Shown here: positions 920 to 51,314 of the stretch, in pieces
Numbering within the stretch: position 1 is the stretch's first letter
Layout of the letters: the number at the start of each line of letters is the position of its first letter
NCBI GenBank assembly: GCA_902780865.1
Contig: CACZHC010000001.1
Span: 3,554-67,553 of the forward strand
Length of the DNA: 64,000 nt
Direction: 5' to 3'
Origin: an uncultured bacterium
Lineage (GTDB): Bacteria > Verrucomicrobiota > Kiritimatiellia > RFP12 > UBA1067
Position numbers and translations under genes: made by a program
Notes under the pieces: generated by a model
Told to the model about the DNA's origin: nothing
The model's database searches: none
Seen by the model: the letters and a program-made list of their open reading frames with translations, nothing else

Positions 920-969
920 CGGGCTCAGAGTGGCGGGTGGTTTATTTTTTATACATGTATAATTTCTGA

Positions 970-999
970 TTGACGGGCGAGGCGGATTTATGCTAATCT
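970..999 (+). promoter_or_regulatory. sigma70-like promoter TTGACG-N18-TAATCT for the regulator gene; ATG lies 9 nt after the -10 (near-leaderless)
   Basis: Read directly from sequence. A perfect 12-bp palindrome TATACATGTATA at 950-961 sits just upstream and is a candidate operator. Confidence 0.4.
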
Positions 1000-1008
1000 G
1001 CTCTCGTC

Positions 1009-9622: not shown

Positions 9623-9659
9623 AAGACATGGGATAATTCTGGAGCAGAGGAGGTATTTC

Positions 9660-11459: not shown

Positions 11460-11709
11460 AGTTGGCGCTGCGCCGCGCGAGGAAATGACTTTCATACCGT
11501 TCGAACAGAAGGAGGACCCGTACACGTTCGCCCCCGACATGCTCGGGTTCATCCAGAAGCACCGCATCAACTGGACGGGATGGTGCTTCCATCCGAAGGC
11601 GGGCCCCTGCATGATCAGGAGCTGGGACTACGACCCGACGCCGTACTGGGGCGAGTTCGCGCGCCGCGCCCTATCCGGCGAGAAGTTCGAGATGAAGAGA
11701 ATGCGATGA
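11342..11709 (+). pseudogene. C-terminal GH5 fragment in the +1 frame (..[49 protein letters not shown]..), evidence of a frameshift in the GH5 gene
   Basis: The frame starting after TAG at 11341 encodes the GH5 nucleophile motif FLGEVG, continuous with track ORF 11485..11709. Together with 9660..11459 this reconstitutes a complete GH5 domain. Confidence 0.5.
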
Positions 11710-15693: not shown

Positions 15694-16326
15694 ATGAAGA
15701 AGATAAAGGTGCTTATAGTCGACGACCATGCGGTAGTGCGAATGGGACTCAAGTACGCGCTTTCCCTCTTCGTGGACATTGAACTCGCCGGCGAGCTTGC
15801 GGATGGAGAAGGCGCGGCAGAGCTCATGAAGCGCTCGGGTGCGGATGTAGTTTTGCTCGACATCAGGATGCCGGGCAAGGACGGCATAGCAACGCTCGGC
15901 GAGATGCTTGCCGCCGATTCTTCCGCGAAGGTCGTGATGCTCACGACGAGTTCCATGGAGGAAGACGTCTATGCCGCGCTCAACGCCGGTGCGAAGGGGT
16001 ATGTCCTCAAGGACCGCAATCCCGAGAACATCGTCAAGGCCATTCGCGCCGTCGCGGAAGGCGGCACGTTCATTCCCGACGACATCAAGGCCATTTACAA
16101 GGCGAGGAGCGAGGAGCCCGAGCTCACGCCTGCCGAACGCGAGGCTGTCGCTCTGCTCGTCCAGGGGCTCAACAACAAGGCGATGGCCGCAAAGCTCGGA
16201 ATATCCGAGGACGGCGTCAAGGTGCGGCTCAAGCACGCCTACGAGAAGCTTGACGTCAGCGACCGCGCAGGCGCGATCGCCGTTGCCATCAAGAGAGGCA
16301 TCGCCCGTCCCTCGGGCATGGTGTAG
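15694..16326 (+). CDS. Two-component response regulator, NarL/FixJ (LuxR-HTH) family
   Basis: MKKIKVLIVDDHAVVRMGL..VVLLDIRMPGKDG receiver domain. C-terminal LTPAEREAVALLVQGLNNKAMAAKLGISEDGVKVRLKHAYEKL is a LuxR/GerE HTH. Confidence 0.85.
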   Translation: MKKIKVLIVDDHAVVRMGLKYALSLFVDIELAGELADGEGAAELMKRSGADVVLLDIRMPGKDGIATLGEMLAADSSAKVVMLTTSSMEEDVYAALNAGAKGYVLKDRNPENIVKAIRAVAEGGTFIPDDIKAIYKARSEEPELTPAEREAVALLVQGLNNKAMAAKLGISEDGVKVRLKHAYEKLDVSDRAGAIAVAIKRGIARPSGMV

Positions 16327-16336
16327 CCGGCAGTCG

Positions 16337-18418
16337 ATGAAACGCGTCCTGACAGTCCTGTTCGCGACTATCGCCGTTTCTGCCTTCGCGCTGCCGCGCG
16401 TGAAGGTCGCGGACATCCTCGCCATGGACGCAGACGAAATCGCCGCGTGCGGGAAATGCGAACTCGAGGTCCAGGTGGCGTTCGTGATACCGTGGGTGAA
16501 CAATGCCTTTGTGGCCACCGATGTCGGCGACGCGGACGGCCATGCGCTATATTTCGCGGCGTTCACTGATCCGCAGCCGGGAATGTTCGACAGCGTCGAG
16601 GCCGGCGACATAATGAAGGTGATCGGCACGCCCGACCCCATGCTGCTCGAACCCGGAATCGAGTTCGACAGCGCCAAGTTCATCTCGCACGCCGATCTCC
16701 CGCCGCCTCGCACGAGGTCTGTGCTCGGAATAAAGGCGGGACACTTCAACAACTGCCGCGTGCGCGTGCGCGGCGTGTGCGTGTCGGCGGCATACGGCAA
16801 CGCGACTGGAAAGCCGGCATTTCTACTGTGGCTCTCGACCTCGGACGGCGAGATACGCGTGCGCGTGCGCACGAACGACTTCTCCCCGGAGGCTCTCCGC
16901 GACGCGGAAGTCGAGGTTGACGGGGTGGTTGTCCCGATCTTCAACCCTCGCCACGAGTTCATCGGCGCGGAGATTGAGGGGTTGAATGCACAATCGCTGA
17001 CTGTCGCGAAGGCGCCGCCAGACGACCCGTTCTCGGTGCCGGAGTGCGATACCTCGGCGCTTCTCGCGTGGAGTCCGCGCGGGCGCAGGCTCCACGCCTG
17101 CCGCGTAATGGGCGAGGTCACGTGCGTCTACGCCGAAGACGGCATGTTCACCGTCCAGCGCGGGAAGGCGTCGGCGAGAGTGTTCGCGGAAGGTGCGCTT
17201 CCTGAGGCCGGGGACATGGTGGAGGCGGCGGGATTTCCCGTCAGCCGCGGCGAATGCGGCGCGCTCGTCGGCGCAAAATGGCGGCACACGGACGCCGTCC
17301 TCGAACCGGCGAAGATCCACAGGCTTTCTCTCGCCACGGGCTCTGCCTTCGACATCGGCGGATTCAGGTTCGACAACGATCTGCAGTTCCGCCTCGTGGA
17401 GATGACGGGGAGGGTCGTTGACGCCCATTCGATGCGCGATCTGCACGGCAAGCTCGTTATCGACGTCGACGGGCAGAATGTGGAAGTGATACTTCCTCCG
17501 GCTGGCGGCGGAAAGCTGCCGTCGGGCATCAAGGACCTGCCGCTCGTTCGTGTGCGCGGCGTATTGGACGCGCATGTCTCGCTCGGCAACGACACCGACA
17601 GGATGTTCAGCTTCGAGGGCTACCGTCTGCACACGAGGCGCGCCGACGACATTGCGCTTCTCCCCGACTGGCAGTGGGGCGTGCGGAGGGCGCTCGGCTT
17701 CGCGTGGATCGCGTTTCTCTCGGTTCTTGTCGCGTTCTTCGTCTTCGTCGCCGTCGTTGCGTTTCGTCGCCACCACGCGCGCGTCGGCGCCGAGGCGATA
17801 GCGGCCGACAGGCGGCGCATCGCGGCGGAGCTTCATGACACGATATCGCAGCACATCTCGGGCGCGAAGCTGTGGGTGTATTCGGCTAAGATGGCTGCCG
17901 GCGACAAGCTTGCGCCGGGCGCGGCAGATGCGCTCGTGATGGCGGAGAACGTTCTCGAGGCTACGCGGCGCGAGATTCGCGACGCCATCATGGATCTCCA
18001 GAGCGATGATTTTGTCTCGCAGTCGCCTGAGTCGCTTCTGCGGCGCATCTGCCGCGACGCCTCGGCTCCAGGTAAGACGCGAGTTCGCAGCTTTCTGCGC
18101 GGCCTCCCCGCGGATCTTCCGATCATGGTGAAGCGCGATCTCCTCGCCATCGTGTCGGAGGCGATAGGGAACGCCGTGAAACACGGCGGCGCGGCGAACG
18201 TGATCGTGGTGAGCGAGGGCGACGGGGCGGGCGCGTTCACGATAGACGTCCTCAACGACGGCGAGCCGTTTTCGGCGGACGCCGCGCCCGGCCCGGAGAA
18301 GGGGCATTTCGGCATCTCCAATATGCGCGAGCGCGCGGCGCGCTCTGGCATGATGCTGACATTCGGCCAGAAGCGCGGCTACGTCGCGGTTACCCTTCAG
18401 TTCCGGCCAAAGTCGTAG
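16337..18418 (+). CDS. Sensor histidine kinase (HisKA_3/HATPase, NarL-partner type) with a ~400-aa extracytoplasmic sensor domain and one TM segment
   Basis: MKRVLTVLFATIAVSAFA signal/anchor. TM segment GFAWIAFLSVLVAFFVFVAVVAF. H-box RRRIAAELHDTISQHISGAKL. ATPase motifs IVSEAIGNAVKHGGA ... GHFGISNMRERA. Confidence 0.8.
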   Translation: MKRVLTVLFATIAVSAFALPRVKVADILAMDADEIAACGKCELEVQVAFVIPWVNNAFVATDVGDADGHALYFAAFTDPQPGMFDSVEAGDIMKVIGTPDPMLLEPGIEFDSAKFISHADLPPPRTRSVLGIKAGHFNNCRVRVRGVCVSAAYGNATGKPAFLLWLSTSDGEIRVRVRTNDFSPEALRDAEVEVDGVVVPIFNPRHEFIGAEIEGLNAQSLTVAKAPPDDPFSVPECDTSALLAWSPRGRRLHACRVMGEVTCVYAEDGMFTVQRGKASARVFAEGALPEAGDMVEAAGFPVSRGECGALVGAKWRHTDAVLEPAKIHRLSLATGSAFDIGGFRFDNDLQFRLVEMTGRVVDAHSMRDLHGKLVIDVDGQNVEVILPPAGGGKLPSGIKDLPLVRVRGVLDAHVSLGNDTDRMFSFEGYRLHTRRADDIALLPDWQWGVRRALGFAWIAFLSVLVAFFVFVAVVAFRRHHARVGAEAIAADRRRIAAELHDTISQHISGAKLWVYSAKMAAGDKLAPGAADALVMAENVLEATRREIRDAIMDLQSDDFVSQSPESLLRRICRDASAPGKTRVRSFLRGLPADLPIMVKRDLLAIVSEAIGNAVKHGGAANVIVVSEGDGAGAFTIDVLNDGEPFSADAAPGPEKGHFGISNMRERAARSGMMLTFGQKRGYVAVTLQFRPKS

Positions 18419-26483: not shown

Positions 26484-29400
26484 ATGAAGAATTGTCATAG
26501 ACACGCAGCCAGGGCGCTTTGCTCGGTGGCTGGAATGTTGTTTGCAGCTTCGGCTTTTGCCGCAGATGATGCGGACGTCACCGGCCTCGTGCCAACGGTC
26601 TTCATGGACTTCGAAGCATCCAGTCTGGCGAACAAGGGCTCGGCAAGTGCCTCGTTCAAGGACGAAGGAACAAAAAAATACAGTAGCGGGGCTAATGGCG
26701 GCTATGCGCTTGATACGTCAAGCTTCACGCCGTATACGTCGAGTAGCGGTTCTTTCTCTACGGCCGGTGAGCCAATCACCGTCTCCGCCGTCATGACGCT
26801 TGGCACGAACACGAACGGCATCACTCTGAACGTCCGCTCGGCCGCCGGCGACCTGATCATCCGCCGCGGCGCCGACACGGGCTCGCTCGTCATCGGCTTC
26901 GGCTCGCAGGGGGCGGTTTCGACGGCAGTTTTGAACGCGACCTTTGCCGACGGCGATGCTGCCTGGCATCTCGTTTCCGTAGTCGCTGGTTCGACGGGCA
27001 CTGGACTCTACGTTGATGGCGTTCTCGTCGGTTCCACGACGGACACCACTCTGTGGAGCCCTACGGGCGTCCTGAGCGACATGCAGTTCGGATCGCACTT
27101 TGGAGGGCTCAAGACAGGCGATGTCAAAAATGGCGGCTGTATCGATGACCTCCGCATCCACGCTGCGGCGCTTACCACTGTCCAGATGACGGCGATCGCC
27201 GTCGAATACGGGATCGTCGTCCCGGAAGGACACATCGCCGTCCGAGCGTCGGGCGAGCCGACGGTCGGCAAGAACACGTTCTCGACGACCTGGTCGCTGG
27301 ACATCGCCCCGGACGACAGGGCCGAGGCCGCCCTCGTCTACGGTTCGGACGCCGCGCTGTCGACACCGACGACGAACGCTCTCGGCTCGGCCCTTTCCGC
27401 CGGAGACTACACGGCGTCCCTTGCCGGCCTTTCCCCCGGCACGACGTACTGGTGGAAGATCGTCGCGAGCAACGGCGTCAACCGGGCCGAAACGGACACG
27501 GCGTCGTTCCGCACGCTCGACGAGATCGTCCCGACGGACTACGCCAGTCGCATCCCCGCCGCCATCTCCGGCTATGCCGGGACGGATACGCTCACGAACT
27601 TCCCCGTCCTCGTGAAACTCGCCGCTGGACAGCCCGCCGGCTTCGACTACGCCGACTGCGCGGAGGACGGCGCGGATATCCGCTTCGCGTCCCCGGACGG
27701 CACGGTGCTGCCGCACGAAATCGACACGTGGAACACGAACGGCGAGTCGCTTGTCTGGGTGAAGATCCCGGCGATCGCCGGCACGGCCACGGCGTTCGCG
27801 ATGTACTACGCCGCGCCGGACCCGGCGAGGCTTCCGCCGGTCGATCCGCACGACGTCTGGACCGCGGCCGGACACCGCGCCGTGTGGCACTTCGCCGCGG
27901 ACGCGACGGAGTCCGCGCAGGGCCTGGTCGCCTCCACGGTCACCGGCACCCCGTCCTACGAGAACGACGGCGCCGTCGGCAAGTGCTGGCAGAGCGCGGG
28001 CGCGGCGTGGCTGCAGTACGCGAACGACGCCTCGTGGAGCAGGCTCGGCCCCGATTCGACGCTCACGATCTCCGTCTGGGCCAAGTTCGACTCCTCTTCC
28101 TACGGTTACAACCGTATCCTCTCCGCAATGTCGAGCTGGGAAAATCCGGCCGGCTACGAACTGACCGTCCAGAACAACAAGAACCAGATCACAGTCGGCT
28201 CGAGCGGCAAGAGCCAATACCAGAAGGTCGTTTCGCCGGGGCCGTCGGACGAGATGGTCTACCTCACGGCCGTCTACAACGCCGACACCTACGCGGACCT
28301 CTACGTGAACGGCGTCCTGCAGGAGCACAAGCAGCTCAATCCGCTCGTGTGGCCGACGGAGGCGATGACGGTCGCCTGCGTGGCCGGCGGCGGCAACGTC
28401 TGGAACGGCAAGCTGGACGAGCTCCGCCTCCACGCGGCCGCCGAATCGGCCGACTGGGTCAAGGCCTGCTACGACACGATGGCGGCGCCGACGTCGTTCG
28501 TCGCCCTCTCGCCGGCCGAATCGACCGACCCGGACCTGCCGCGGTTCGGCGCAGTTTCCGCGTCCGACGCGAACGGCGTCGCGACCTTCACCGTTCCGCT
28601 CACCGAGCCCGGCTACGGCGGCGAAGTCCCGACCGCCGTTTCGGTCTTCTACGGGACCGACGGCGAAACCTGGACGGAGCTTTCCCTCGGTTCGACGAAC
28701 GAGGCCGCGACGCTGACCGTCTCGGCGTCCGGGTTCGCGGTCGGCGTCCGGTACCTCTGGTACGCCGTCGCCACCGCGACGAGCGGCGGCACGCCCAAGA
28801 CGACGGTCTCCCAACCGCAGTCGTTCGTCGCCAGGGCCTTCGACCCGACGGGGGACTACAAGTCCTTCACGGCGACCGTCGTCTGGGACGGTGCGCCCGC
28901 GGAGAACCTCCCGTTCCTGCTGCGCATCTCCGAGGGCGGAATCAACGGCTTCGACTACGACGACGTCACGGCGTCCGGCCTCGAGATCCTCGACGCGGAC
29001 GGCCACCTGCTTCCCTTCGAGATCGACACGTGGAACACGGACGGCGAATCGCTCGTCTGGGTCCTTCTGCCCGTCTACGAAAACGGCGCGACGGTTACCG
29101 TCCGCTACGGCGCCCCGTTCGCCAACGCGCCGATTCCCGCGACGAACGTCTGGGCGGCCTATGTCGCCGTGTGGCACATGAACGAAATCCTCGTCGACGC
29201 CGATTCCGGCAACCACTACACGCCCGATTCCTCCGCGAGCGGCTGGCATGCCTACAAGTCCGACGAGGCGGACACCGTTCTGTCGCCTGTGACAACCGCG
29301 CCCGGAGCCTCCGCGCATCCGACGCCCCTCACCGGGACTGCGATGAACATCGCCTACGGCGCTGGGAAGTCGAGCTCGTCCCTCGGCGGCTTCCGTGTCC

Positions 29401-31574
29401 CTGCGGCACAGACCTCCACAACCACGCTGAATGGCCCTGGCTTCACGCTCTCCGCCATCGTCAACTCGCAGCAGATCGCCAACAACGGCCGTTGCCGCGT
29501 GATCGCCTTCGGAAACGAATACAACGACAGGGCCAACTTCGCGGTCGGCTCCGACAAGATCTACTGCATGGGATCCAACTCCCACAACAAGACCAATCCG
29601 AAGGGCGCGACGGGCTGGGTCTACGCCGCGGACGTCTTCAACTCGCCGTATTCGAAGATCTACGCCGACGGCGTCTGCCTTTCCGCCAGCAACGAGGGCA
29701 ACCCCAACCTCGCTAGCCTCACGCTCGACAAGGGCATCGGCCTCGGCTGCTTTACGGGCGGCAAACAGTGCCTCGACGGCTACCTCGACGAGGCGCGCAT
29801 CCGCAACGCGGCTTCGACCGCCGACTGGATCGCGGCCGAATACCACGCGATGGCGGACGCCGGAGCGATATCCTTCTCCTCCGTTTCCTCGTCCGACATA
29901 TCGGCTCCCGTTCTCGGGATACCGTCCGTCGAGAGTAACCCCGACGGCTCGTTCACTGTTTCCGTCGAAGTGTCCGAAAATACGCCGGCTTCGATTGTCT
30001 GCATAGTCGGAGGAACCGACTACGCGATGACAACCGCGGACGCGTCTCTCCCGACGACGTATTCCGCCATGGTTTCCGGCCTTGCGCCCGGCACCTATGT
30101 TGCGTCCGTCCATGCGACGGCAACGAGCGGAACGGTTGTTTCCTCGACCTGCCCGACAGCGTTCCATGTTGGTTCGCTGACAATCGTCAAGCAGTCCGAC
30201 GCCGACGAAGGCACGATTGCGCCCGGAGTCTTCCGCGTTTCGCGCCTTGACGCCGATTCCACGGGCCTGCCCGCCGTGACGTTCGACGTTGCGTTTTCCG
30301 GAAGCGGACTTGCCGCGATCGCCGCCCCCGGCATTTCGACCGCCACGATTCCCGCGGGCGCGGCGTATGTCGAGATCGCTGTGACGCCTGTTCCCACGGA
30401 CGAAGTGGATGAAGACAGCGAACTTGTCCTGACGGTTTCTGGTGCGCAGATCGGGCAGCAGTCGACCGGAACGCTGACCGTTGTGGACGCGGGGTTTGAC
30501 CTCGCGGTTCGCTATGTCTCCACGGATGGCAACGACGCCAACTCCGGCGGCACACCAGAGGCGGCCAAGAAGACGATAGCTGCTGCCGTCGCCGCCGTCA
30601 ATCCGGTTGCGCCGTCACGGCCCTGCACAGTCCATGTCGCGACTGGTCTCTATCCAATCACGAAACCGATCGTCGTAACGAACGCGATCGCCATTCTCGG
30701 TGACAATCCGGATCCGTCGCGCGTCGTCGTGTCGAACACCGTCATTGGAGGTTGGGGTGCGATGAACCGGATTTTCACGATCGACCATGCCGGCGCTTTT
30801 GTGGCGAACCTCACGATGCAGAATGGCAATGTGAACGGTTCTGATCATGGTGGAAACTTCAATGTCGGTTCTGCCGGCGGTATCGTGTCCAATTGCGTCG
30901 TCGAGGCCGGCAAAAGCAATGGAAACCTGTACGGGGCGGGAGCACGGCTTTCAGGTGGCCTCGTCACGCATACAGTCTTCCGCAAGAACAACTGCGGATC
31001 GGGCATGGGTAATTGGCAGGGACAGCATGGTGGCGTTCTGGAGCTTTATGGCTCGTCCCGCGCGGAGAACTGCCTCTTCGTCGACAATCCTCCGTCCGGG
31101 ACGGTCTACCTCTCTCTGATCGGCGATTCTGCCGTCATGCGCAACTGCACGATTGCCGACACGGGTCTTTCGAAGACGAACGAATACTGCAAGGTATTCA
31201 CCGCGATCCGCATCAACTCTTCGAAAGCGACGGTTCTCAACACCGTGATCGCCGGCGTGACGAACAAGATTGACGGCGCGGCTTGTCCGCCGACGGGGTC
31301 GGGCGTTGCGAATTTCCTGAACGGCGCGTTCGACGGCGATGTGACGGGGCTGCCCGAAGGCACCGTTACCGGAACGGCGGCGGAGTTCTTCAAGGACTAT
31401 GAGAACGGCGACTACACGCCGAGCTTCTCCGGCCCACTTGCAAATGTGGGCGATGAGTATGAGGGAATGGCCGCGGTTGATCTTGCCGGAAAGAAGCGCA
31501 AGGCCGGCAATCACATTGACATCGGCTGCTACGAGTGCCAGAAGGAGAAGGGCTTCTTTATACTTCTTCGATAA
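26484..31574 (+). CDS. Giant (1696 aa) secreted multidomain protein: LamG-like domains, two DUF2341-like modules, Fn3-like regions, and a C-terminal right-handed beta-helix ending DIGCYE..KGFFILLR
   Basis: Signal peptide. LamG signatures CIDDLRIHAAALT, LDELRLHAAAESADWV, LDEARIRNAASTADWI. Two DUF2341-like modules (NFPVLVKLAAG..GADIRFASPDGTVLPHEIDTWNTNGESLVWVKIP and LPFLLRISEGG..LEILDADGHLLPFEIDTWNTDGESLVWVLLP). Beta-helix region (..TVHVATGLYPITKPIV..NCTIADTG..) with terminal HIDIGCYEC. Confidence 0.7.
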   Translation: MKNCHRHAARALCSVAGMLFAASAFAADDADVTGLVPTVFMDFEASSLANKGSASASFKDEGTKKYSSGANGGYALDTSSFTPYTSSSGSFSTAGEPITVSAVMTLGTNTNGITLNVRSAAGDLIIRRGADTGSLVIGFGSQGAVSTAVLNATFADGDAAWHLVSVVAGSTGTGLYVDGVLVGSTTDTTLWSPTGVLSDMQFGSHFGGLKTGDVKNGGCIDDLRIHAAALTTVQMTAIAVEYGIVVPEGHIAVRASGEPTVGKNTFSTTWSLDIAPDDRAEAALVYGSDAALSTPTTNALGSALSAGDYTASLAGLSPGTTYWWKIVASNGVNRAETDTASFRTLDEIVPTDYASRIPAAISGYAGTDTLTNFPVLVKLAAGQPAGFDYADCAEDGADIRFASPDGTVLPHEIDTWNTNGESLVWVKIPAIAGTATAFAMYYAAPDPARLPPVDPHDVWTAAGHRAVWHFAADATESAQGLVASTVTGTPSYENDGAVGKCWQSAGAAWLQYANDASWSRLGPDSTLTISVWAKFDSSSYGYNRILSAMSSWENPAGYELTVQNNKNQITVGSSGKSQYQKVVSPGPSDEMVYLTAVYNADTYADLYVNGVLQEHKQLNPLVWPTEAMTVACVAGGGNVWNGKLDELRLHAAAESADWVKACYDTMAAPTSFVALSPAESTDPDLPRFGAVSASDANGVATFTVPLTEPGYGGEVPTAVSVFYGTDGETWTELSLGSTNEAATLTVSASGFAVGVRYLWYAVATATSGGTPKTTVSQPQSFVARAFDPTGDYKSFTATVVWDGAPAENLPFLLRISEGGINGFDYDDVTASGLEILDADGHLLPFEIDTWNTDGESLVWVLLPVYENGATVTVRYGAPFANAPIPATNVWAAYVAVWHMNEILVDADSGNHYTPDSSASGWHAYKSDEADTVLSPVTTAPGASAHPTPLTGTAMNIAYGAGKSSSSLGGFRVPAAQTSTTTLNGPGFTLSAIVNSQQIANNGRCRVIAFGNEYNDRANFAVGSDKIYCMGSNSHNKTNPKGATGWVYAADVFNSPYSKIYADGVCLSASNEGNPNLASLTLDKGIGLGCFTGGKQCLDGYLDEARIRNAASTADWIAAEYHAMADAGAISFSSVSSSDISAPVLGIPSVESNPDGSFTVSVEVSENTPASIVCIVGGTDYAMTTADASLPTTYSAMVSGLAPGTYVASVHATATSGTVVSSTCPTAFHVGSLTIVKQSDADEGTIAPGVFRVSRLDADSTGLPAVTFDVAFSGSGLAAIAAPGISTATIPAGAAYVEIAVTPVPTDEVDEDSELVLTVSGAQIGQQSTGTLTVVDAGFDLAVRYVSTDGNDANSGGTPEAAKKTIAAAVAAVNPVAPSRPCTVHVATGLYPITKPIVVTNAIAILGDNPDPSRVVVSNTVIGGWGAMNRIFTIDHAGAFVANLTMQNGNVNGSDHGGNFNVGSAGGIVSNCVVEAGKSNGNLYGAGARLSGGLVTHTVFRKNNCGSGMGNWQGQHGGVLELYGSSRAENCLFVDNPPSGTVYLSLIGDSAVMRNCTIADTGLSKTNEYCKVFTAIRINSSKATVLNTVIAGVTNKIDGAACPPTGSGVANFLNGAFDGDVTGLPEGTVTGTAAEFFKDYENGDYTPSFSGPLANVGDEYEGMAAVDLAGKKRKAGNHIDIGCYECQKEKGFFILLR

Positions 31575-31588
31575 TTGCCGACACGGCC

Positions 31589-31632
31589 TACACTTTCGTG
31601 TATTGCCGCCTTCGCGACGCTTTTGGTACAAT
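31589..31632 (+). promoter_or_regulatory. Promoter box copy 3: TACAC-TTTC-GTGTA / TTGCCG-N18-TGGTACAAT; ATG at 31643 lies about 10 nt after the -10 (leaderless)
   Basis: Read from sequence. Confidence 0.6.
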
Positions 31633-31642
31633 CGCGTCGCCA

Positions 31643-34183
31643 ATGAAACGAATATTCTTAGTGGTACTTGTCGCTCCGCTCGCGCTCGCCGCGGCGGAGG
31701 TTTCGCGCGACGATGCCGCGATTGCGGCGCGCGCATGGGTTGATCGCGGCTATGCGATGGGCAAGCTCCCTGCCGGGTGCACCGTTGCGGGCGTGGACGA
31801 GGTGACGGATCCGGACACTGGCGCGGAGTTGCGCGTGGTGCGCTTCACTGGCGGCGGCTATGTCGTTCTCTCGGCCAACGATCTTGTCGATCCGGTAATT
31901 GCTTTTTCCGAGACTGGAACTGGCCTCGACCTCGACGATGACAATCCGTTTTGGGCGCTCCTGCGCAGCGACATTGCGGCGCGCGAGGCCCATGCAGGTG
32001 TCGAGCGCGGCAAATCCGCCGCGGCGAAGAAGGGGACTGGCGTGCTTCTCGCCGCGTCCGGTCGGACGACCGCGCAGCGCAAGTGGGACAATCTCCTCTC
32101 GAAGCCTTCGGGAGGCGCCCCCGTGCTCCGCGCCGTAGCGGGTCTCTCCTCGCTCTCGGACATTCGGGTTGACTCGTTCGTGCAGTCGCGCTGGTCGCAG
32201 TCCGGTCACGCCAATACCGATTTAGGCGTTCCGTGTTACAACTACTACGTGACGAACCACTACGTCTGCGGTTGCGTTGCTACCGCACAGGCGCAGCTGA
32301 TGCGCTACTGGTGCTATCCGACAGCGAACGAGCCGGTCGAGCCGTTCTACAATCTCTGCATGGTCGACAACAAGTACATCTTCCCCTACATAATGGGCGG
32401 GGCTTACGACTGGGACAATATGCCACTTGAACCGATGTGGGTCGCGGACATTACGGAGGAACAGTGCCAGGCCATCGGCAAGCTCACCTACGACGTCGGG
32501 GTAACCGTACGCATGGAGTGGAAGTCTGACGGAAGCAGCGCGAGCGTGCCATCCACCGTGGCGTCCCTGACGCACAACTTCCATTACGCGAGCGCGCACG
32601 CCGTTTCCTATTCGTCCGGCTCCTGCAAGTTGGATCTGTTCAAAAAGGCCCTGATTCCCAACCTCGATGCCCGCTGTCCGTGCATCCTGAGCATCCAAGG
32701 TTCCGGCGGCCACGCGATCCTCGCCGACGGCTACGGCTATTCAGATGGCAATTTCTTCATCCATGTCAACATGGGCTGGGCAGGCTCGGGCGACGCTTGG
32801 TACAATCCGCCGAACATCGAGGAATACACGTCGATCAAGGCCTACGTCTACAATGTCTTCCCCAGGAAGACCGGCTCCATCGCGAGCGGCCGCGTGCTCG
32901 ACCAGTCGGGGAATGCCGTCGCGGGCGCGAACGTGGCGCTCTCCGACGGACAGACGACGGTTTCCGACGCGAACGGCATCTATGCGTTCATCGCGCCCGC
33001 CGGGACGTACGATCTTACGGCCGCAAAGGGCGGCTTTACCGCGCTGGGCTCGGTGACGCTCGGCGAAACGGCCGGAATCAACGTCTCGACGAACATCGGC
33101 ACGTATGGGACCTACAATCACGGCACCGGCAAGAACGGCAACGTCTACGACAACGACCTCCAGTTCGCGGACATGCCGTCCACTTCGGCACCCGTCTTCT
33201 CTCCCGGGGCGTGTGCCGTCCACCCTGCCACCAACGTAACAATCACCTGTGCCAATGCGAACGCGACGATTCGCTACACGGTCGACGGCACGGCGCCGGA
33301 CGAGACGAGCCCCCTATACGACGGGCCGATTTATGTGAACGACACCGTCACGATCAAGGCGCGTGCCTTTGCGCCCGGTTGCAACGCTAGTGCCGTTGCC
33401 GTTGCGGACTACGTATACGATCCGGGAGACGGTCCGCAGAAGGGCGACAACTTCGACGATCCGATCGAGATCTATGGCGCGAGCGGAACGCGCGTTGTCG
33501 CGGACAACGAGCTTTACACGATCGAGGAAGGCGAGCCGGTCCATGTCGTCATCGATGGCACGCCCAAGCCCCAGCTCCGCTCGATCTGGTACCGCTGGAC
33601 GGCACCCGCGAGCGGACGCGTGACCTTCCGCACGTACTGCCGGAAAGGCAACGCCGCCTACTATACCAACATTGCCGCCTACCAGGGGGATACGCTCGCC
33701 AGCGCCGAGAAGATCGCCTTCTCGACTGCTAACGACGCCAACTACGCGGCGCTCCTTCCCCTCGACGTCGTCCAGGGGACCACCTACCGGTTCGTCGGAA
33801 TGATCAACTCGACCAATGCCCCCGCGGCCTTCGGGACCTTCACGCTGCGCTGGGACGACGAATTCCCGACCACATTGCCTTTGCCCGTCTTCCGTCCTGC
33901 CGAGCAGGGTGGGGGAATGTTGTTCGCCGGCTCTGGGGCGGGCCGTAGTTTGACATTCTATCTTGAAGACACGCTTCCTACGGCTTATTACGCGGTGTTC
34001 ACCAATGGGACTTTGAGGGGGCCATTTTTCGCGGCTGCCAATGGTGTTACGGGGGCGAATAGTGGCGTTCTTGAGCTTCCCGTCGATGCCAAGGAATCGT
34101 CCAAGTTCTTCGCCATCGGCGTGTCGGACAAGCCCATTTCCGTCGGCGACCCGCTCGTGCCGAGGGCAAATGCTGGCAACTAA
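31643..34183 (+). CDS. Secreted C10-family (streptopain/SpeB-like) cysteine peptidase with a CarbopepD-regulatory-like domain, a chitobiase/hexosaminidase C-terminal-like domain, and a C-terminal ~100-aa domain shared with the 47182 protein
   Basis: Signal peptide MKRIFLVVLVAPLALAAA. WSQSGHANTDLGVPCYNYYVTNHYVCGCVATAQAQLMRYW (catalytic Cys motif GCVATA.AQ.M.Y). GGHAILADGYGY (catalytic His). GRVLDQSGNAVAGANVALSDGQTTVSDANGIYAF. ANATIRYTVDGTAPDETSPLYDGPIYVNDTVTIKARAF. Confidence 0.7.
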   Translation: MKRIFLVVLVAPLALAAAEVSRDDAAIAARAWVDRGYAMGKLPAGCTVAGVDEVTDPDTGAELRVVRFTGGGYVVLSANDLVDPVIAFSETGTGLDLDDDNPFWALLRSDIAAREAHAGVERGKSAAAKKGTGVLLAASGRTTAQRKWDNLLSKPSGGAPVLRAVAGLSSLSDIRVDSFVQSRWSQSGHANTDLGVPCYNYYVTNHYVCGCVATAQAQLMRYWCYPTANEPVEPFYNLCMVDNKYIFPYIMGGAYDWDNMPLEPMWVADITEEQCQAIGKLTYDVGVTVRMEWKSDGSSASVPSTVASLTHNFHYASAHAVSYSSGSCKLDLFKKALIPNLDARCPCILSIQGSGGHAILADGYGYSDGNFFIHVNMGWAGSGDAWYNPPNIEEYTSIKAYVYNVFPRKTGSIASGRVLDQSGNAVAGANVALSDGQTTVSDANGIYAFIAPAGTYDLTAAKGGFTALGSVTLGETAGINVSTNIGTYGTYNHGTGKNGNVYDNDLQFADMPSTSAPVFSPGACAVHPATNVTITCANANATIRYTVDGTAPDETSPLYDGPIYVNDTVTIKARAFAPGCNASAVAVADYVYDPGDGPQKGDNFDDPIEIYGASGTRVVADNELYTIEEGEPVHVVIDGTPKPQLRSIWYRWTAPASGRVTFRTYCRKGNAAYYTNIAAYQGDTLASAEKIAFSTANDANYAALLPLDVVQGTTYRFVGMINSTNAPAAFGTFTLRWDDEFPTTLPLPVFRPAEQGGGMLFAGSGAGRSLTFYLEDTLPTAYYAVFTNGTLRGPFFAAANGVTGANSGVLELPVDAKESSKFFAIGVSDKPISVGDPLVPRANAGN

Positions 34184-45801: not shown

Positions 45802-45858
45802 CTCTGCGTGCTCTGCGTCTCTGCGTTGAAATATCCTACACGTCCTACATGGTTAAAA
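45802..45858 (+). promoter_or_regulatory. Variant regulatory region: three tandem CTCTGCGT repeats, then two direct repeats of CCTACA at 9-bp spacing abutting a TGGTTAAAAA -10-like element
   Basis: Read from sequence. The same CTACA half-site as the inverted-repeat boxes, in direct-repeat configuration. Confidence 0.4.
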
Positions 45859-45872
45859 ACGAAGGAGGCAAA

Positions 45873-47117
45873 ATGATAAGACCATTGGTTGCGGTTCTTG
45901 TGGCGGCGGTTTCGTTTGGAGTTGCGAACGGCTATACCGTCGACGCGGAAATTCCGGCGGGGAACATCGTCGTGAAGTCGATCGAAGGCGATGTCGTGAA
46001 GCTGAAACAGGACTTCCGCGACACGCCCGGACACTGGATCTACTGGGCGTTCCGCGTCAGAGGTGCCGCGGGACGGACGCTCACCTTTGACTTCGGCGAC
46101 TCGGCCGCGGTCGGCTCCCGCGGCGCGGCGGTTTCGGAAGACCACGGTGGACACTGGCGCTGGTCCGACTTCGAGAGGGACGATCCACGCGACCCGGTGA
46201 CGGGAGACCACGCATCGTACACGACCTTCACCTGGAAGTTTGGCCCGGACGACAACGAGGTGTGGTTCTCGCAGACCTTCCCGTACTCGCAGTCCGACTG
46301 GGAGGCCTTCCTCGCGGCGCACGCGGCGGACTACGGCAGGGTCTTTGTCACCAACACTCTGTGCCTCTCGAAGAAGGGGCGTCCCGTCGAGGCAGGACGC
46401 TTCGGACGCATCGACGGCAAGGCCAAATACCGCATGTTCGTCACTTCGCGCCACCACTGCGCGGAGACGACGGCGACGTTTGTGATGGAAGGGCTTCTGT
46501 CGGCCGTCTTCGGCGATGACGAACTCGGACGCTGGATGCGCGAGAACATCGAGATACGCGCCGTTCCGTTCGTCGACAAGGACGGCGTAGTTGATGGCGA
46601 CCAGGGCAAGAACCGCAGACCATACGACCACTGCCGCGACTACAACGACGACAAGCCGTCCATCCACCCCGAGATCAAGGCGATCCGCGAGATGCTGGAG
46701 AAGTGGGCGAAGGAGAGCGGAACGCCGTCCGTCGTGATGGACCTGCACTGCCCGTGGCTCCGCGGCAGCTGGCTCAAGAAGGACGACTCGAACGAGTACA
46801 TCTACGCCGTCGGAATCAAGGACGTCGAGCCCCAGCAGCGCCGCATCTGCGAGATACTCGAGCGCGTGCAGGAGTCTGGTTCCGGGTTCCTCGCCTCGGA
46901 CTACTACGCCGAGGGCCGCGGATGGAACACGGGCGCGAACTACAAGGCTGGCTCGACGCTCACGCAGTGGGCGATACGCACCTGGCCGGACGCGCCGCTC
47001 GTGGTCTGCTTCGAGATTCCCTTCGCGAACGCGCGCCGCATGACGCTCATGCCGCCGACGTTCCGCCTCTTCGGCCGCGACATTGCGCTCGCGCTCAAGG
47101 CCTATCTCGAGCCGTAG
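45873..47117 (+). CDS. M14-family zinc carboxypeptidase-like protein with an N-terminal beta-sandwich domain
   Basis: AAGGAGG RBS. Signal peptide MIRPLVAVLVAAVSFGVANG. Zn-ligand-like HHCAET (HxxE). IEIRAVPFVDKDGVVDG (NPDG-like). MDLHCPW (second His). Confidence 0.5.
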   Translation: MIRPLVAVLVAAVSFGVANGYTVDAEIPAGNIVVKSIEGDVVKLKQDFRDTPGHWIYWAFRVRGAAGRTLTFDFGDSAAVGSRGAAVSEDHGGHWRWSDFERDDPRDPVTGDHASYTTFTWKFGPDDNEVWFSQTFPYSQSDWEAFLAAHAADYGRVFVTNTLCLSKKGRPVEAGRFGRIDGKAKYRMFVTSRHHCAETTATFVMEGLLSAVFGDDELGRWMRENIEIRAVPFVDKDGVVDGDQGKNRRPYDHCRDYNDDKPSIHPEIKAIREMLEKWAKESGTPSVVMDLHCPWLRGSWLKKDDSNEYIYAVGIKDVEPQQRRICEILERVQESGSGFLASDYYAEGRGWNTGANYKAGSTLTQWAIRTWPDAPLVVCFEIPFANARRMTLMPPTFRLFGRDIALALKAYLEP

Positions 47118-47130
47118 CATTCGGGTCGAC

Positions 47131-47173
47131 TACACTTTCGTGTATTGCCGCCTTCGCGTGCTTTTGGTAGAAT
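47131..47173 (+). promoter_or_regulatory. Promoter box copy 7: TACAC-TTTC-GTGTA / TTGCCG-N17-TGGTAGAAT; ATG at 47182 lies 8 nt after the -10 (leaderless)
   Basis: Read from sequence. Nearly identical to copy 3. Confidence 0.6.
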
Positions 47174-47181
47174 CACCGCAA

Positions 47182-49989
47182 ATGCAACGGATATTCCCAA
47201 TGGCACTTGCCGCTCCGCTCGCGCTCGCCGCGGCGGCTGCGCTTCACGGAGCCGTTCCTGACGTCACCGGCTCGCTCGAGTACGTCAGCAGCCCAGCCAA
47301 GCATCGCTGGCCCGCGGGAGGCTCCTCGTGCGGCGCGCTCGACCTCCAGTTCCACCGCGGAACGCTCCTCGTCGGCAGCGGCGAGGTCGAGAGCAACCCC
47401 GGCCCCGTCTGGGTCTATGGAACCGACCCGCTCACGCTCGAGGAGAGCTTCGAATATTCCGCCGGCACCGAGGCGCTCGCAAGCTGTCGTGTCGCGTCGT
47501 GGGGCGAGCTTCTCGTGCCGTCGCAGGACCTGCATGACGGAGACCCAAACGGCGGCACTGTCTTTACGCGCGATATTACCGGCACCTGGAAGCGCTTCAA
47601 CAGCATCGGCGGGAGCGTGCCCACCGCCTCGTCTGGAGTCGTCTACAACAAGACGCACATCTGGGACATGGAGGAGTTCGACGGACGGGTATTCACATCC
47701 GGATACCAGTTGCACTGGTCGACGAACCGCTGCGTAAAATTTGTCGATACCGGCTCGATCACGAACGCCTACCGCGTCCTCTACTATATGACGAGTTCAA
47801 CGAGCGGTCAGGGGCGGTGGTCCCTGCGCCGGCAGATGCAGCTGTTGCGCTTCGCCAACGACCTCTACGCGGTCCCGAACACCCTGATCCAGCCGAACAA
47901 CCGCGTCGCGGACAACGACAAATGGTACAACAAGGCCGAGGTGTTCACTTATAATTCGTCGACGAAGAAGTTTGACGAGTCGCGGCAGGCGATGTCGACA
48001 CTTTTCCCGAACATCTCGTCGAACGACTTCCGCCTTGTCCTTTCGTCCGCGAGTACCACGACCTGGGACCCGCTGCCGACGGGCACATACGACACCGTAC
48101 TTGTGCGTCTCTGGCACACGACGCCGTTCAAGGGGCGCGTCCTCTACGTGGGCTGCTACGACACGAAGCCGGGCTCCCCCGCGTTCACGTCGTACCCCCT
48201 CCCGTTGATGGGATGCTCGGCGTACGTGCAGACGTATGGCGGCAAGAAGACGCTCAAGGCGGACCGCCTTTCGTTCGACAACGACAAGGAGGAGTACCCG
48301 TGGGATTTCACGGTTGTCGGCGACACGTGCTATGCGCTCACGTCGAAGCCCAACGCGTCTACGAAGGTCGTTCGCCATTCTGTCTGGAAGTCAACTAACG
48401 GCACGAGTTTCACGCGCGTCTTTTCGTTCGACTTCCACCAGAACATGATTTCGCTCGACTACCGCGATGGCTGGTTCTGGCTGGGCGTCGGCGTGAAGAA
48501 TGCGACGAGGGGCTACGCCTACGACAGCAAAAAGGCTGACGAGGCGGGCGCGGTCTACCGTGTGCGGCTTCCGCAGGAGCCGACTTCCGTCGAGGCGGTC
48601 AATCCGCCGACAGCTGTTGCGGAAGGGGGCTCGGCGTCAATCGCGTTCCGCCTCACGGCGCAGCCATCGTCCAATTTGACGCTGCGCGTCGCAGCTCGCG
48701 AGCGGCGCGGCGTTTCGCTCGACAAGTCGTCTCTCACGTTCACCACGTCGAACTGGTCGACGCCGCAGACCGTCTTTGTTTCGCTTGCGGACGACGACGT
48801 TGGCGACACGTCGAAGATTTTTGTGCAGTGCGGCGCCTTCGGCGACGACGTGGAGCGCGGCGAGTTCTTCAGCCCCCAGGTGACATCCGCCCTCGTGACG
48901 CTTGAACCTGTCGAGAACGACATTCCTGCGACAGTCGTTTCGGAGTCGTGCGATCCGGGCGTCGGCAAATGCACATATCGCGCGACGTTCGATTCGCTCG
49001 GGAGCGTGAACGGAACGGCCGCGTCGTCAGCCGCCGTGTCGGTGAAGATCTATTCCGACGCCGCGCTCACGGCGCTTGTCGGGGAGACTTCGGGAACAGT
49101 CTCCGCGACTGGAACGGAATGGTCCTTCGTCGTCAACGGACTCGAGAGAGGTGTCTGGTACTGGGTCGTCGCAGAGACATCGACCGCGCCTGGCGTCGCG
49201 CATGTGTTCACCGCGAAGTACCTCTCGCCCATCGCGGACCCGGAAAACCTCGTCGATCTTATGGATGACGAGTCCAACCGCGAGGCGACGTATTCCAACT
49301 CGACTTCCGGCGGTGCGACGGGATCTACTGCGTTCGACAACTCGTCGTCAAAGTTCGGCGGATACAAAAAGCCCGTCGAGTTCTTCTACCAGTTCAAGAC
49401 GCCGGTCGTAGTCAAGGCGTTTGGCGTCGAAGGGGCCGGTAATTCCAACCCCGACCAGGACCCGTCGACAATCAAGATCTTCGGGGGAATCTCGACGAAT
49501 GCGAGCGACCTCGTGCAGCTCTTTTCGCGTACGGGGGAGCCGGCCTGGACTGCCGGAGAATGGCGTCGCTGGCTCGTAGAGAACGAGACTGCCTACACTT
49601 TCTACAAGTTCCAGATGTCCGGCGCTCACCAACACTGCTACATCCGCGAAATCGAGCTCTACGGAGACGTCACTGCGATCGGAGATGTGCCTGCGCCCGT
49701 CTTCCGCTCAGCGGCGGACGGTGGAGCCATGACTTTCTCCGGGACGGGCGCTTCGCGCATTCTCACGCTTCACCTAGTGGGCGCGCTTCCGCAGACGTAT
49801 TACGCCGTTTTCACGAACGGCACCTTGAATGGCGCCTTCTTTGCGGCTTCCGACGGCGTGTGCGGCGAGGCGAGCGGCGCGCTCGAGATATCCGTCGCCG
49901 CCAAGGAGCCGTCCAAGTTCTTCACCGTTGGCGTTTCCGCGGAGCCGATCTCCGAAGGCGACTTGCTCGTGCCTGGAGGCTCGCGGTGA
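47182..49989 (+). CDS. Secreted surface protein with a Calx-beta-like domain, a discoidin/F5-8-C-like domain, and a C-terminal ~100-aa domain shared with the C10 peptidase
   Basis: Signal peptide MQRIFPMALAAPLALAAAAALHG. Calx-beta-like segment PTAVAEGGSASIAFRLTAQPSSNLTLRVAARE..TFTTSNWSTPQTVFVSLADDDVGDTSKIF. Discoidin-like segment ..KKPVEFFYQFKTPVVVKAFGVEG..YKFQMSGAHQHCYIREIELYG. C-terminal ..YYAVFTNGTLNGAFFAASDGV..SKFFTVGVS.. Confidence 0.55.
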   Translation: MQRIFPMALAAPLALAAAAALHGAVPDVTGSLEYVSSPAKHRWPAGGSSCGALDLQFHRGTLLVGSGEVESNPGPVWVYGTDPLTLEESFEYSAGTEALASCRVASWGELLVPSQDLHDGDPNGGTVFTRDITGTWKRFNSIGGSVPTASSGVVYNKTHIWDMEEFDGRVFTSGYQLHWSTNRCVKFVDTGSITNAYRVLYYMTSSTSGQGRWSLRRQMQLLRFANDLYAVPNTLIQPNNRVADNDKWYNKAEVFTYNSSTKKFDESRQAMSTLFPNISSNDFRLVLSSASTTTWDPLPTGTYDTVLVRLWHTTPFKGRVLYVGCYDTKPGSPAFTSYPLPLMGCSAYVQTYGGKKTLKADRLSFDNDKEEYPWDFTVVGDTCYALTSKPNASTKVVRHSVWKSTNGTSFTRVFSFDFHQNMISLDYRDGWFWLGVGVKNATRGYAYDSKKADEAGAVYRVRLPQEPTSVEAVNPPTAVAEGGSASIAFRLTAQPSSNLTLRVAARERRGVSLDKSSLTFTTSNWSTPQTVFVSLADDDVGDTSKIFVQCGAFGDDVERGEFFSPQVTSALVTLEPVENDIPATVVSESCDPGVGKCTYRATFDSLGSVNGTAASSAAVSVKIYSDAALTALVGETSGTVSATGTEWSFVVNGLERGVWYWVVAETSTAPGVAHVFTAKYLSPIADPENLVDLMDDESNREATYSNSTSGGATGSTAFDNSSSKFGGYKKPVEFFYQFKTPVVVKAFGVEGAGNSNPDQDPSTIKIFGGISTNASDLVQLFSRTGEPAWTAGEWRRWLVENETAYTFYKFQMSGAHQHCYIREIELYGDVTAIGDVPAPVFRSAADGGAMTFSGTGASRILTLHLVGALPQTYYAVFTNGTLNGAFFAASDGVCGEASGALEISVAAKEPSKFFTVGVSAEPISEGDLLVPGGSR

Positions 49990-51314
49990 TCCGGCGCGGA
50001 CATGCAGTGCTACCACTGGCAGCCCTTGCCGCGCTCGCGTTGCCTGCGGCCGCGTTCTGTGAAGCCGCCGGACGCTACGTTCCGACATATGACGCCGAAA
50101 AGGCGTGGTATCTCGGCGAGCTCGGTGTCACGAACCTTCTGAACGCCGGCATTACCGGCAGAGGCGTCCGCGTCGGTGTCATCGACCTCGGCGTGGGCGA
50201 CATCGTGACCGGGGCGCACACGAACCTGCACTGCGCGGCGAAGGGTGGAAAATCCATGCGGGCCATGCACGGCCCGGCGGTTGCGGGCATCATCGCCTCC
50301 GACCTCTATGGCGTCGCGCCGGAATGCGAGATCTACGCCTACGACAACGGGGACGGCACTGCTGACGACCTGATTGCCGGCTTCGCCTGGTGCGTCTCGA
50401 ACGGATGCCGCGTGATCAACTACTCCGGCGGCATGCACCGGTTTTCGCGAGGCGTCGGCAACCTTCCGGAGGAGGCCGCCGCCGCGAAGCTGGAGGAGCT
50501 CCGCGCCGCGGTCCGCGCGGCGATGTCGGCGGGAATCGTCGTTGTGGCATCGGGCGGCAACGCGCCGAACGAGACGCTTACCTGCCCGCAGGACGTAGAT
50601 GGCGTGATCAACATCGGCGGAGTCGCTCGCACGCGCAAGTCCGCCGGGCTCAACGACTCCTGGGCGAAGGACTTTTGCGCCTTCGGCAAGGACGTGCCGA
50701 TCTTCACTTCGCGCTCCGGCGCGACAGGCGCGCAGAGCGGCTCGTCGTTTGCCGCGCCGATGGCAACCGGAATCATCGCGCTCCTGCTCCAGCAGGAGCC
50801 CTCGCTCACGCGCGACGAGATATACGGCATCCTGCGCTCCACCGCCTTGCGGCCCGAAGGAGGCCGGACGAAAACCCACGGCTACGGACTCCTCCAGGCC
50901 GCGCGTGTCCCGGCGGACTACAAGCGCCAGGCCGCGTTCGACGCCGAGCAGGCCGCGTTCGTGCGTACGGATTCGGCCGAGCTGCTCAACGAAGGCATTT
51001 CGTGGAACGAGGAGCGCGGGTTCTACGAGACGAAAATGCGCCCCGGGGAATCGATGAAGCTTGAGTACAGGATCAATCCCGCGAATGCCACCGACCGGAA
51101 CCTCTACTGGTACTGCGGCAACATGCCGACATTTCGTCCGATTGAGCTCGACCAGGTCCTGACGATCCCCGCCATGACAAAGCCCGGCGAGTTCCTTGTC
51201 TACTTCGCGCGCAACGACGCTCGGCAGATCGTCTGCCGGCTGCGCGTCGACGTCGTCGCGCCAGATCCCGCCGCTCCGCTCGCCGAACCCGCCCGCGAAC
51301 TCTGCCGGCAATAG
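49986..51314 (+). CDS. Secreted S8-family subtilisin-like serine peptidase; GTG start overlaps the upstream stop (GTGA)
   Basis: Signal peptide VIRRGHAVLPLAALAALALPAAAF. Catalytic triad motifs VGVIDLGV (Asp), HGPAVAGIIAS (His), GSSFAAPMATG (Ser). Confidence 0.8.
   Translation: MIRRGHAVLPLAALAALALPAAAFCEAAGRYVPTYDAEKAWYLGELGVTNLLNAGITGRGVRVGVIDLGVGDIVTGAHTNLHCAAKGGKSMRAMHGPAVAGIIASDLYGVAPECEIYAYDNGDGTADDLIAGFAWCVSNGCRVINYSGGMHRFSRGVGNLPEEAAAAKLEELRAAVRAAMSAGIVVVASGGNAPNETLTCPQDVDGVINIGGVARTRKSAGLNDSWAKDFCAFGKDVPIFTSRSGATGAQSGSSFAAPMATGIIALLLQQEPSLTRDEIYGILRSTALRPEGGRTKTHGYGLLQAARVPADYKRQAAFDAEQAAFVRTDSAELLNEGISWNEERGFYETKMRPGESMKLEYRINPANATDRNLYWYCGNMPTFRPIELDQVLTIPAMTKPGEFLVYFARNDARQIVCRLRVDVVAPDPAAPLAEPARELCRQ

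Follow-up and report, generated by a model that had tools for sequence, protein, structure and literature searches.

What is the role of a protein domain that closes two secreted proteins whose mature forms are otherwise unrelated? This question is raised by a 64-kb stretch of DNA (58-66% G+C; referred to as the window) from an uncultured rumen bacterium of the Kiritimatiellae. In this window, a C10 cysteine peptidase (31643-34183) and a second large protein (47182-49989; the 47182 protein) end in the same module of approximately 100 residues, which is called the C-terminal domain (CTD) in the following. An earlier reading made from the letters of the window (the sequence-only reading) had seen in it a discrete, portable module on two unrelated secreted proteins, and this is borne out: the CTD represents an undescribed family, is located almost invariably at the very end of exported proteins and takes turns with other endings on one and the same passenger. 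Its function is tentatively placed, at a little short of an even chance, in the sorting or surface retention of proteins: the CTD would be a lineage-specific C-terminal module that works like the CTD of the type IX secretion system (T9SS), without being one. The Kiritimatiellae degrade polysaccharides and are abundant in the rumen, the gut and anoxic sediments, and almost none of them have been cultured; a literature search returned nothing on the way in which their proteases, esterases and adhesin-like proteins reach the cell surface.

Two copies of a C-terminal domain

Comparison of the two full proteins by composition-adjusted BLASTP yielded one significant segment, aa (amino acids) 745-840 of the peptidase versus 836-931 of the 47182 protein, in which 60 of 96 residues are identical (63%) without any gap (E 3e-31); all remaining segments have E > 0.2. 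The segment corresponds to positions 33875-34162 and 49687-49974 of the window. As had been claimed, the match is also evident in the DNA, with 66% identity over 282 nucleotides (nt) and zero indels. The copy in the peptidase had been assigned to 33880-34183; this location is right, and its start is one base off, the frame from 33880 giving stops and that from 33881 reading LPVFRPAEQ... It is right to call the two proteins otherwise unrelated as far as their mature forms go, but their genes additionally share a block of ~108 nt at the 5' end (see below). The two copies are:

33875..34183, + strand: CTD copy 1, final ~100 aa and stop codon of the C10 peptidase (core by hidden Markov model (HMM), 33899-34165)
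49687..49989, + strand: CTD copy 2, final ~100 aa and stop codon of the 47182 protein (from BLASTP, translation and HMM)

No more than these exist in the window: when all six frames were searched by tblastn and by unfiltered HMM, the next match had E > 0.2. Between the copies, the proportion of differing synonymous sites (pS) is 0.65 and that of nonsynonymous sites (pN) is 0.23, giving a dN/dS ratio of ~0.18. The two copies are therefore old duplicates under purifying selection, conserved at the protein level, and not the outcome of recent copying. Within the near family, copy 2 has diverged most, with 61-67% identity to every other member. Near-family CTDs have P-x-F-R at their N-terminal boundary (e.g. 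LPLPVFRPAEQ), which in the window lies at 33884-33895 and 49696-49707. A similar start is seen in the short tail that ends the C10 homologs P0110-P0140 (PPPVAFRVIVR before the stop); judged by sequence, this likeness may be a coincidence, or a hint that the tail (class D below) arose by truncation.

An undescribed family with a predicted beta-sandwich fold

With the window copies, searches of Pfam and NCBIfam gave nothing at E <= 0.1; with 22 diverse members, they gave nothing at E <= 1, and a sequence-profile search of the PDB returned noise only (E > 0.05). The positions Y40, F52 and F79 are invariant, and together with the motifs YYAVFTNGTL, SKFF.(I/V)GVS and PI..GD they recur in independent metagenome contigs; the family consensus reads ...F.(L/V).(I/L).N.v.GAYYTVFT..(T/S)L.GpF.AE..SV....G.L.L.VDA..P.KF.kIvvS..P...Gd.l. 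Neither a well-characterised family nor shared low complexity, the two findings that would have overturned the initial proposal, was thus encountered.

The AlphaFold2 model of copy 1, built on an alignment of 22 sequences, is a small beta-sandwich with six strands of at least three residues, plus shorter bridges (predicted local distance difference test (pLDDT) 85, predicted template modelling score (pTM) 0.75). An independent AlphaFold model of a 35%-identical member has the same strand pattern (pLDDT 87.5). Foldseek comparison of both models with the PDB gave nothing with E < 0.4; the weak, non-significant neighbours are generic sandwiches, mostly carbohydrate-binding modules (CBMs), with template modelling scores (TM) <= 0.44, and no solved T9SS CTD is among the 50 matches listed for each of the two models. 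Because matches to Pfam, NCBIfam and PDB sequences and significant Foldseek matches are all absent, the CTD is an undescribed family as judged from sequence and models; a new fold is not claimed. According to the models, the domain is predicted to fold on its own into a beta-sandwich of about 85-95 residues.

Distribution and carriers

A HMMER scan of 1.84 billion cluster representatives returned 37 CTD matches at E <= 0.001, 27 of which were accepted as single-domain matches. P0013, P0014, P0022, P0023, P0025, P0032 and P0041 were discarded, as their scores, spread over several stretches, are sums of weak repeats. The position of the domain is highly constrained: 25 of the 27 accepted distant members carry the CTD at the extreme C-terminus, ending within a few residues of the protein end. 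All relatives come from metagenomes of the gut or the rumen, the close ones (70-100% identity) being confined to metagenome contigs. Wherever the organism is named it belongs to the Kiritimatiellae (P0015, P0045, P0046, P0076 and contig DGHT01000054 of the metagenome-assembled genome (MAG) UBA3841, the Pgk of which is 91% identical to the window Pgk). The window Pgk is itself found at 100% identity in the rumen MAG RUG12088 and at 80-99% in dozens of Kiritimatiellae MAGs from ruminants and the human gut.

The carriers are diverse. Among them are peptidases (Peptidase_C10; Peptidase_C25, P0019; a partial S8 with a beta-helix, P0039), a BD-FAE esterase (P0009), FN3 arrays (P0020), DUF6528 proteins (P0016, P0033/P0048, P0040) and a 1671-aa protein without any family match. 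Full-length carriers open with Sec-type signal peptides. The best NCBIfam similarity of the C25 carrier P0019 is to the T9SS sortase PorU, at 43.9 bits against a cut-off of 420 bits, as expected of any C25 peptidase. In locus L087, the CTD ends two of three adjacent genes, the middle one encoding a beta-helix protein that ends in ...GIMIIIE. The same locus encodes (7443-12287) a 1614-aa Peptidase_C25 protein with CTD beside a HisKA_3/GerE two-component pair; in the window, a HisKA_3-like sensor is encoded at 15971..18418.

A word-indexed protein search badly under-reported the family (7-11 fragments) and overlooked even the window's own full-length protein, which a later search recovered as P0059. 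Scanning 185,579 GTDB species representatives for the near-family pattern gave no confirmed CTD match, probably because MAGs fragment in this repeat-rich island. By coordinate arithmetic, the species-representative contig CACYNF010000010.1 (43,946 bp, identical pgk) stops near position 28.4 kb of the window, inside a repetitive 1696-aa gene (26484..31574), and the island of paralogous surface-protein genes (28-54 kb) is seemingly lost systematically from short-read MAGs. A 2-kb metagenome contig, L001, has two divergently oriented CTD copies on opposite strands, 2-787 (-) and 807-1346 (+), with esterase-like flanking sequence in a shifted frame; either the CTD repeats gave rise to a genuine inversion, or the contig is a chimera assembled across the repeat.

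Interchangeable endings of the C10 peptidases

The peptidase gene lies in an open reading frame (ORF) at 31535..34183, with its true start at the ATG 31643. Its protein consists of a signal peptide, an I69-like prodomain, Peptidase_C10 (PF01640, 132 bits against a gathering cut-off of 26, E 4e-38), CarboxypepD_reg, CHB_HEX_C/Fn3_assoc and a PPC-like domain (...FTLRWDDEFP), which is followed by the C-terminal slot:

31643..33868, + strand: C10 peptidase passenger, delimited by Pfam domains and by the junction found in 119 homologs

A search with the passenger only (aa 1-743) gave 547 homologs. The best 120 of these all keep C10 and CarboxypepD_reg, and nearly all keep CHB_HEX_C/Fn3_assoc; from them, 119 were analysed (P0059-P0177), P0008 having been obtained earlier. 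The junction is sharp in 115 of the 119, following a PPC-like end of the type ...GTFTLRWDDEFP or ...FTLSWSGDLT, and divergence starts exactly past ...FTL.W..(D/E).., which places the transition from passenger to variable slot at 33868/33869 in the window. The slot is occupied by at least five alternative endings (counts approximate):

Class A, the CTD: 19 homologs, plus divergent versions in P0147 and P0177
Class B, ~116 aa of the type PYETWA...NAFRYVFG...RFYRLKAEVE at the terminus: ~42 homologs
Class C, ~125 aa with a weak TSP3-like DSDGDG motif and the terminus HRFFKVFVEKK: ~35 homologs
Class D, a tail of 12-14 aa, V.PPP.GFRIIVR: 14 homologs
Class E, the terminus AGFYRVKVSVKAED: 3 homologs

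Classes B and C are thus each commoner in these homologs than the CTD, and classes B, C and E lack library annotation as well. Close relatives may differ in their endings: P0069 and P0073 have passengers with 85% and 79% identity, respectively, to the window's, yet both have a class B ending. In all 21 CTD carriers among the 119 homologs, the CTD is terminal, and it also remains last in C10 orthologs with 275-375 extra residues (FN3-like, LamG-like) in front of it.

The last strands are alike across the classes: KFFAIGVS in class A, KFAKIVVS in distant members of class A, SRFFRVGVS in P0147, RFFRLKAEVE in class B, RFFKVFVEKK in class C, GFYRVKVS in class E, and GFRIIVR and GFRLKVR in the tails. 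Support for homology is weak (hhalign, class A versus B P 0.004 over 48 columns, A versus C P 0.056), and an iterated HMM search (Z = 1e6) converged without recruiting class B or C to the CTD.

The 47182 protein and exchange of gene ends

The gene of the 47182 protein lies in an ORF at 47083..49989 and truly starts at the ATG 47182. No Pfam, NCBIfam or PDB sequence match was obtained for the protein:

47182..49686, + strand: 47182 passenger, comprising a signal peptide, a large N-terminal region without Pfam match and a discoidin-like penultimate domain (...CYIREIELYG)

It had been labelled a Calx/discoidin protein in the sequence-only reading. The Calx part of this label is putative. For the discoidin part, there is homology (BLASTP E 3e-9) between the penultimate domain and an F5/8-type-C domain in the window's 36454 protein, which matches PF00754; a direct Pfam match is what the 47182 protein itself lacks. 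Its orthologs, P0009 and a protein of L005, reach 1574-1627 aa by insertion of esterase and DUF2341/LamG-type domains, and the CTD stays final in them too. Directly upstream of the gene, 45849-47117 encodes a 422-aa signal-peptide protein with no Pfam or NCBIfam match, which by eye may resemble an M14-type carboxypeptidase.

The genes of the C10 peptidase and the 47182 protein also resemble each other at their beginnings:

31587..31694, + strand: 5' block copy 1, with promoter-like TTGCCG-18-TACAAT and TG extension, very short leader, ATG 31643 and signal-peptide codons
47129..47233, + strand: 5' block copy 2, upstream of and into the 47182 gene

The blocks (~108 nt) are ~87% identical and include an exact repeat of 29 nt, where none is expected by chance. 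A promoter scan finds promoter-like hexamers in them (TTGCCG, 18 nt, TACAAT or TAGAAT, with TG extension), and the leader measures a few bases, with no visible Shine-Dalgarno sequence. Since P0009 and the L005 ortholog have a different signal peptide, the 5' end of the 47182 gene was probably converted from the C10 gene in the lineage of the window.

The 3' ends have been exchanged as well. P0008, an ortholog of the C10 peptidase, and P0009 are otherwise unrelated and have a common C-terminal cassette of 374 aa (aa 848-1218 and 1199-1572, respectively; 78% identity), consisting of a LamG-like domain and the CTD, of which the window genes retain only the last ~96 aa, at 63% identity. The two families therefore swapped their 3' ends more than once. 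Kinship of the CTDs does not track that of the passengers: P0009 has a CTD that shows 82% identity to the CTD of the window C10 peptidase and only 63% to that of the window's 47182 protein.

Hydrophobic-Arg tails and a putative choice-of-anchor Q slot

Eight large signal-peptide proteins of the window (beta-helix, PATR and LamG types) end in a hydrophobic strand of 6-8 residues and a terminal Arg. Their C-termini are at 4306, 9622, 21023, 31574, 38745, 43234, 45782 and 53765 (+ strand), the tails being VFIR, AIFVR, SIVVR, FILLR, VIIVR, IMIVR, RLKVR and CIRLR; similar tails occur in related loci, namely FIIIVR (L089), LLLIR (L088), QIIFK (L091) and MIIIE (L087). The CTD differs from this tail in sequence, as stated in the sequence-only reading, and the tail is covered by no library family.

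In NCBIfam, the name 'choice-of-anchor' is given to families that stand before one or another C-terminal sorting signal. Four beta-helix proteins of the window match one of them, NF041518 ('choice-of-anchor Q'), directly before the tail, one at 46.7 bits and three at 20-24 bits (cut-off 25). In P0039, an NF041518 region at aa 581-619, below the cut-off with 22.4 bits, is followed by the CTD at aa 626-712. There are also window enzymes with a signal peptide and without tail or CTD, e.g. 34253, 38939 and 45849; the endings therefore mark only a subset of the exported proteins.

Possible functions of the CTD

The tentative assignment of the CTD to sorting or surface retention rests on its terminal position, the Sec signals of its carriers, its promiscuity, its retention at the end despite insertions, purifying selection and the interchange of endings. 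By analogy, this combination of features is the signature by which C-terminal sorting or anchoring signals were recognised elsewhere. The earlier suggestion of an anchoring or export domain thereby gains indirect support, from the strict terminal position, the Sec signal peptides and the interchange of endings in two unrelated passenger families. We infer a sorting or anchoring role for the C-terminal slot, and the existence of a receptor or translocon that serves it. The N-terminal signal peptide would carry the protein across the inner membrane, whereupon the folded terminal CTD would be recognised by, or bind to, a component of the outer envelope; the passenger, be it a protease, an esterase or an adhesin-like array, would in this way be displayed on the cell surface or held there. 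The design would be that of the T9SS CTD, with an unrelated sequence and presumably unrelated machinery.

Several observations weigh against this assignment. Comparison of the genes neighbouring CTD genes identified no sorting machinery, and no conserved partner gene lies beside CTD genes across eight contexts; a search of the literature for T9SS, sorting or a C-terminal domain in the Kiritimatiellae yielded nothing of relevance, an outer-membrane translocon included. The detected family is small, with 1-2 copies per sequenced locus, and these copies and the 37 matches are fewer than a general secretion signal would be expected to give. The residues past the last strand vary in length and sequence, hence there is no strict terminal motif, and in one member, P0037, the CTD is internal. 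The best Foldseek neighbours of the predicted fold are CBM21, CBM35, CBM4, CBM6 and other sugar-binding sandwiches, albeit non-significantly (E >= 0.5; TM <= 0.4 for the four CBM families). Moreover, interchange with a short tail indicates that the slot is variable, not that all its occupants share one function.

The few copies, the absence of a conserved partner, the variable end, the internal domain of P0037 and the CBM-like neighbours make a ligand-binding module the serious rival, even though it is regarded as unlikely. As a carbohydrate-binding or adhesion domain, the CTD would fasten enzymes to a polymer of the diet or of the host and not to the cell, which would suit its predicted small beta-sandwich, the conserved aromatics on two strands (YY..F and KFF) and the abundance of glycoside-hydrolase-like genes in CTD loci. 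However, the CTD matches no CBM family in sequence, all its structural matches are weak (E >= 0.5, TM <= 0.44), and CBMs occur in all positions, whereas the CTD is almost never N-terminal or internal; cysteine and serine proteases carry it just as readily as esterases do, and the same slot may hold a tail of 12-14 residues that cannot be a binding domain. Still less probable is a structurally inert cap or spacer, shared only through repeated recombination between the ends of neighbouring genes. Such recombination is documented by the 5' block of the window pair (~108 nt, 87%) and the 3' cassette of their relatives (374 aa, 78%), and the CTDs are related independently of their passengers; yet the selection signal argues against inertness, the window copies being old (pS 0.65) and nevertheless conserved (dN/dS ~0.18), and the family keeps its terminal position and core residues on many unrelated passengers at 30-40% identity. 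That the similarity is a chance or compositional match has a negligible probability: high G+C inflates the Ala, Gly and Pro content, which lends the idea no support, whereas the compositionally adjusted E of 3e-31, the ungapped alignment, the same invariant residues in independent contigs and the confident fold prediction all contradict it.

The sequence-only reading had also considered a recognition domain for the subtilase gene adjacent to copy 2:

49986..51314, + strand: S8 subtilase (PF00082, E 1e-26), the GTG start of which overlaps the stop codon of the 47182 gene (GTGA)

Translational coupling through this overlap, as well as the signal peptides of both proteins, would fit a CTD that is recognised or processed by the subtilase. 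The adjacency is not conserved, however: in L005 and L001, the gene following the 47182 ortholog encodes an alanine racemase instead. No S8 gene is adjacent to the C10 copy or to the CTD genes of L087, L089, L091 and L093, and the S8 homolog P0039 itself ends in a CTD. This part of the proposal is not supported and is rated highly improbable.

If the CTD is a sorting domain, the other endings could belong to the same system. The CTD, the two endings of ~120 residues and the hydrophobic-Arg tail of 7-14 residues would then be alternative signals for one surface-protein sorting pathway of the Kiritimatiellae, a rather doubtful extension that is given less weight than ligand binding and more than an inert cap. 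Recognition might be keyed on the common terminal beta-strand (KFFAIGVS, SRFFRVGVS, RFFRLKAEVE, RFFKVFVEKK or GFRIIVR). Such a pathway, if real, would be a counterpart of the T9SS CTD system in the lineage of Planctomycetes, Verrucomicrobia and Chlamydiae (PVC), built from unrelated parts.

Significance

The swapping of the CTD with other endings on one passenger offers a handle on surface placement and defines a set of candidate surface proteins. It would also permit a search for the missing machinery by phyletic profiles. As a sorting domain, the CTD would add a new, non-homologous example to the few folded C-terminal sorting domains; as a binding module, it would instead be a new family directing very different enzymes to a common ligand.

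Comparison with known systems

A folded C-terminal sorting or anchor domain is a known category; the CTD family, its lineage and the interchangeable endings are undescribed in Pfam, NCBIfam, the PDB and the literature searched. One passenger with alternative C-terminal endings is also typical of the choice-of-anchor, PEP-CTERM/exosortase and LPXTG/sortase signals. The CTD differs from them in being a folded domain of ~90 residues without transmembrane helix or short signature motif; it is no tripartite arrangement of motif, helix and basic cluster, and no exosortase- or sortase-like partner was seen. As with CBMs and dockerins, the CTD is a small accessory module, a predicted beta-sandwich, on enzymes in loci rich in polysaccharide degradation, and its weak structural neighbours are CBMs; it matches none of their families, has no Ca-binding dockerin repeats, occurs on proteases and is strictly terminal. 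It resembles the PPC domain as a beta domain that closes secreted peptidases, but the C10 protein has a PPC-like domain of its own upstream of the junction, and the CTD is also found on non-peptidases; none of the 22 CTD sequences matched a PPC or dockerin family of Pfam at E <= 1.

The T9SS is among the closest known systems. In sequence, the window CTD matches neither the type A domain of the Bacteroidota (PF18962/TIGR04183) nor type B (TIGR04131), and it occurs in only a few copies per locus. Its host belongs to the PVC group, as one of the Kiritimatiellae, a lineage that no paper found in the literature search links with T9SS; no component of the T9SS core (PorK/L/M/N, SprA/Sov, PorV, PorU) is among the proteins scanned in the 64 kb of the window. 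In its architecture, by contrast, the type A CTD is similar: it is a terminal beta-sandwich of ~80-100 residues on proteins with Sec signals, it shares with the window CTD the types of cargo, i.e. C10/C25 cysteine peptidases, subtilases and adhesin-like repeat proteins, and it likewise stays terminal whatever is inserted upstream.

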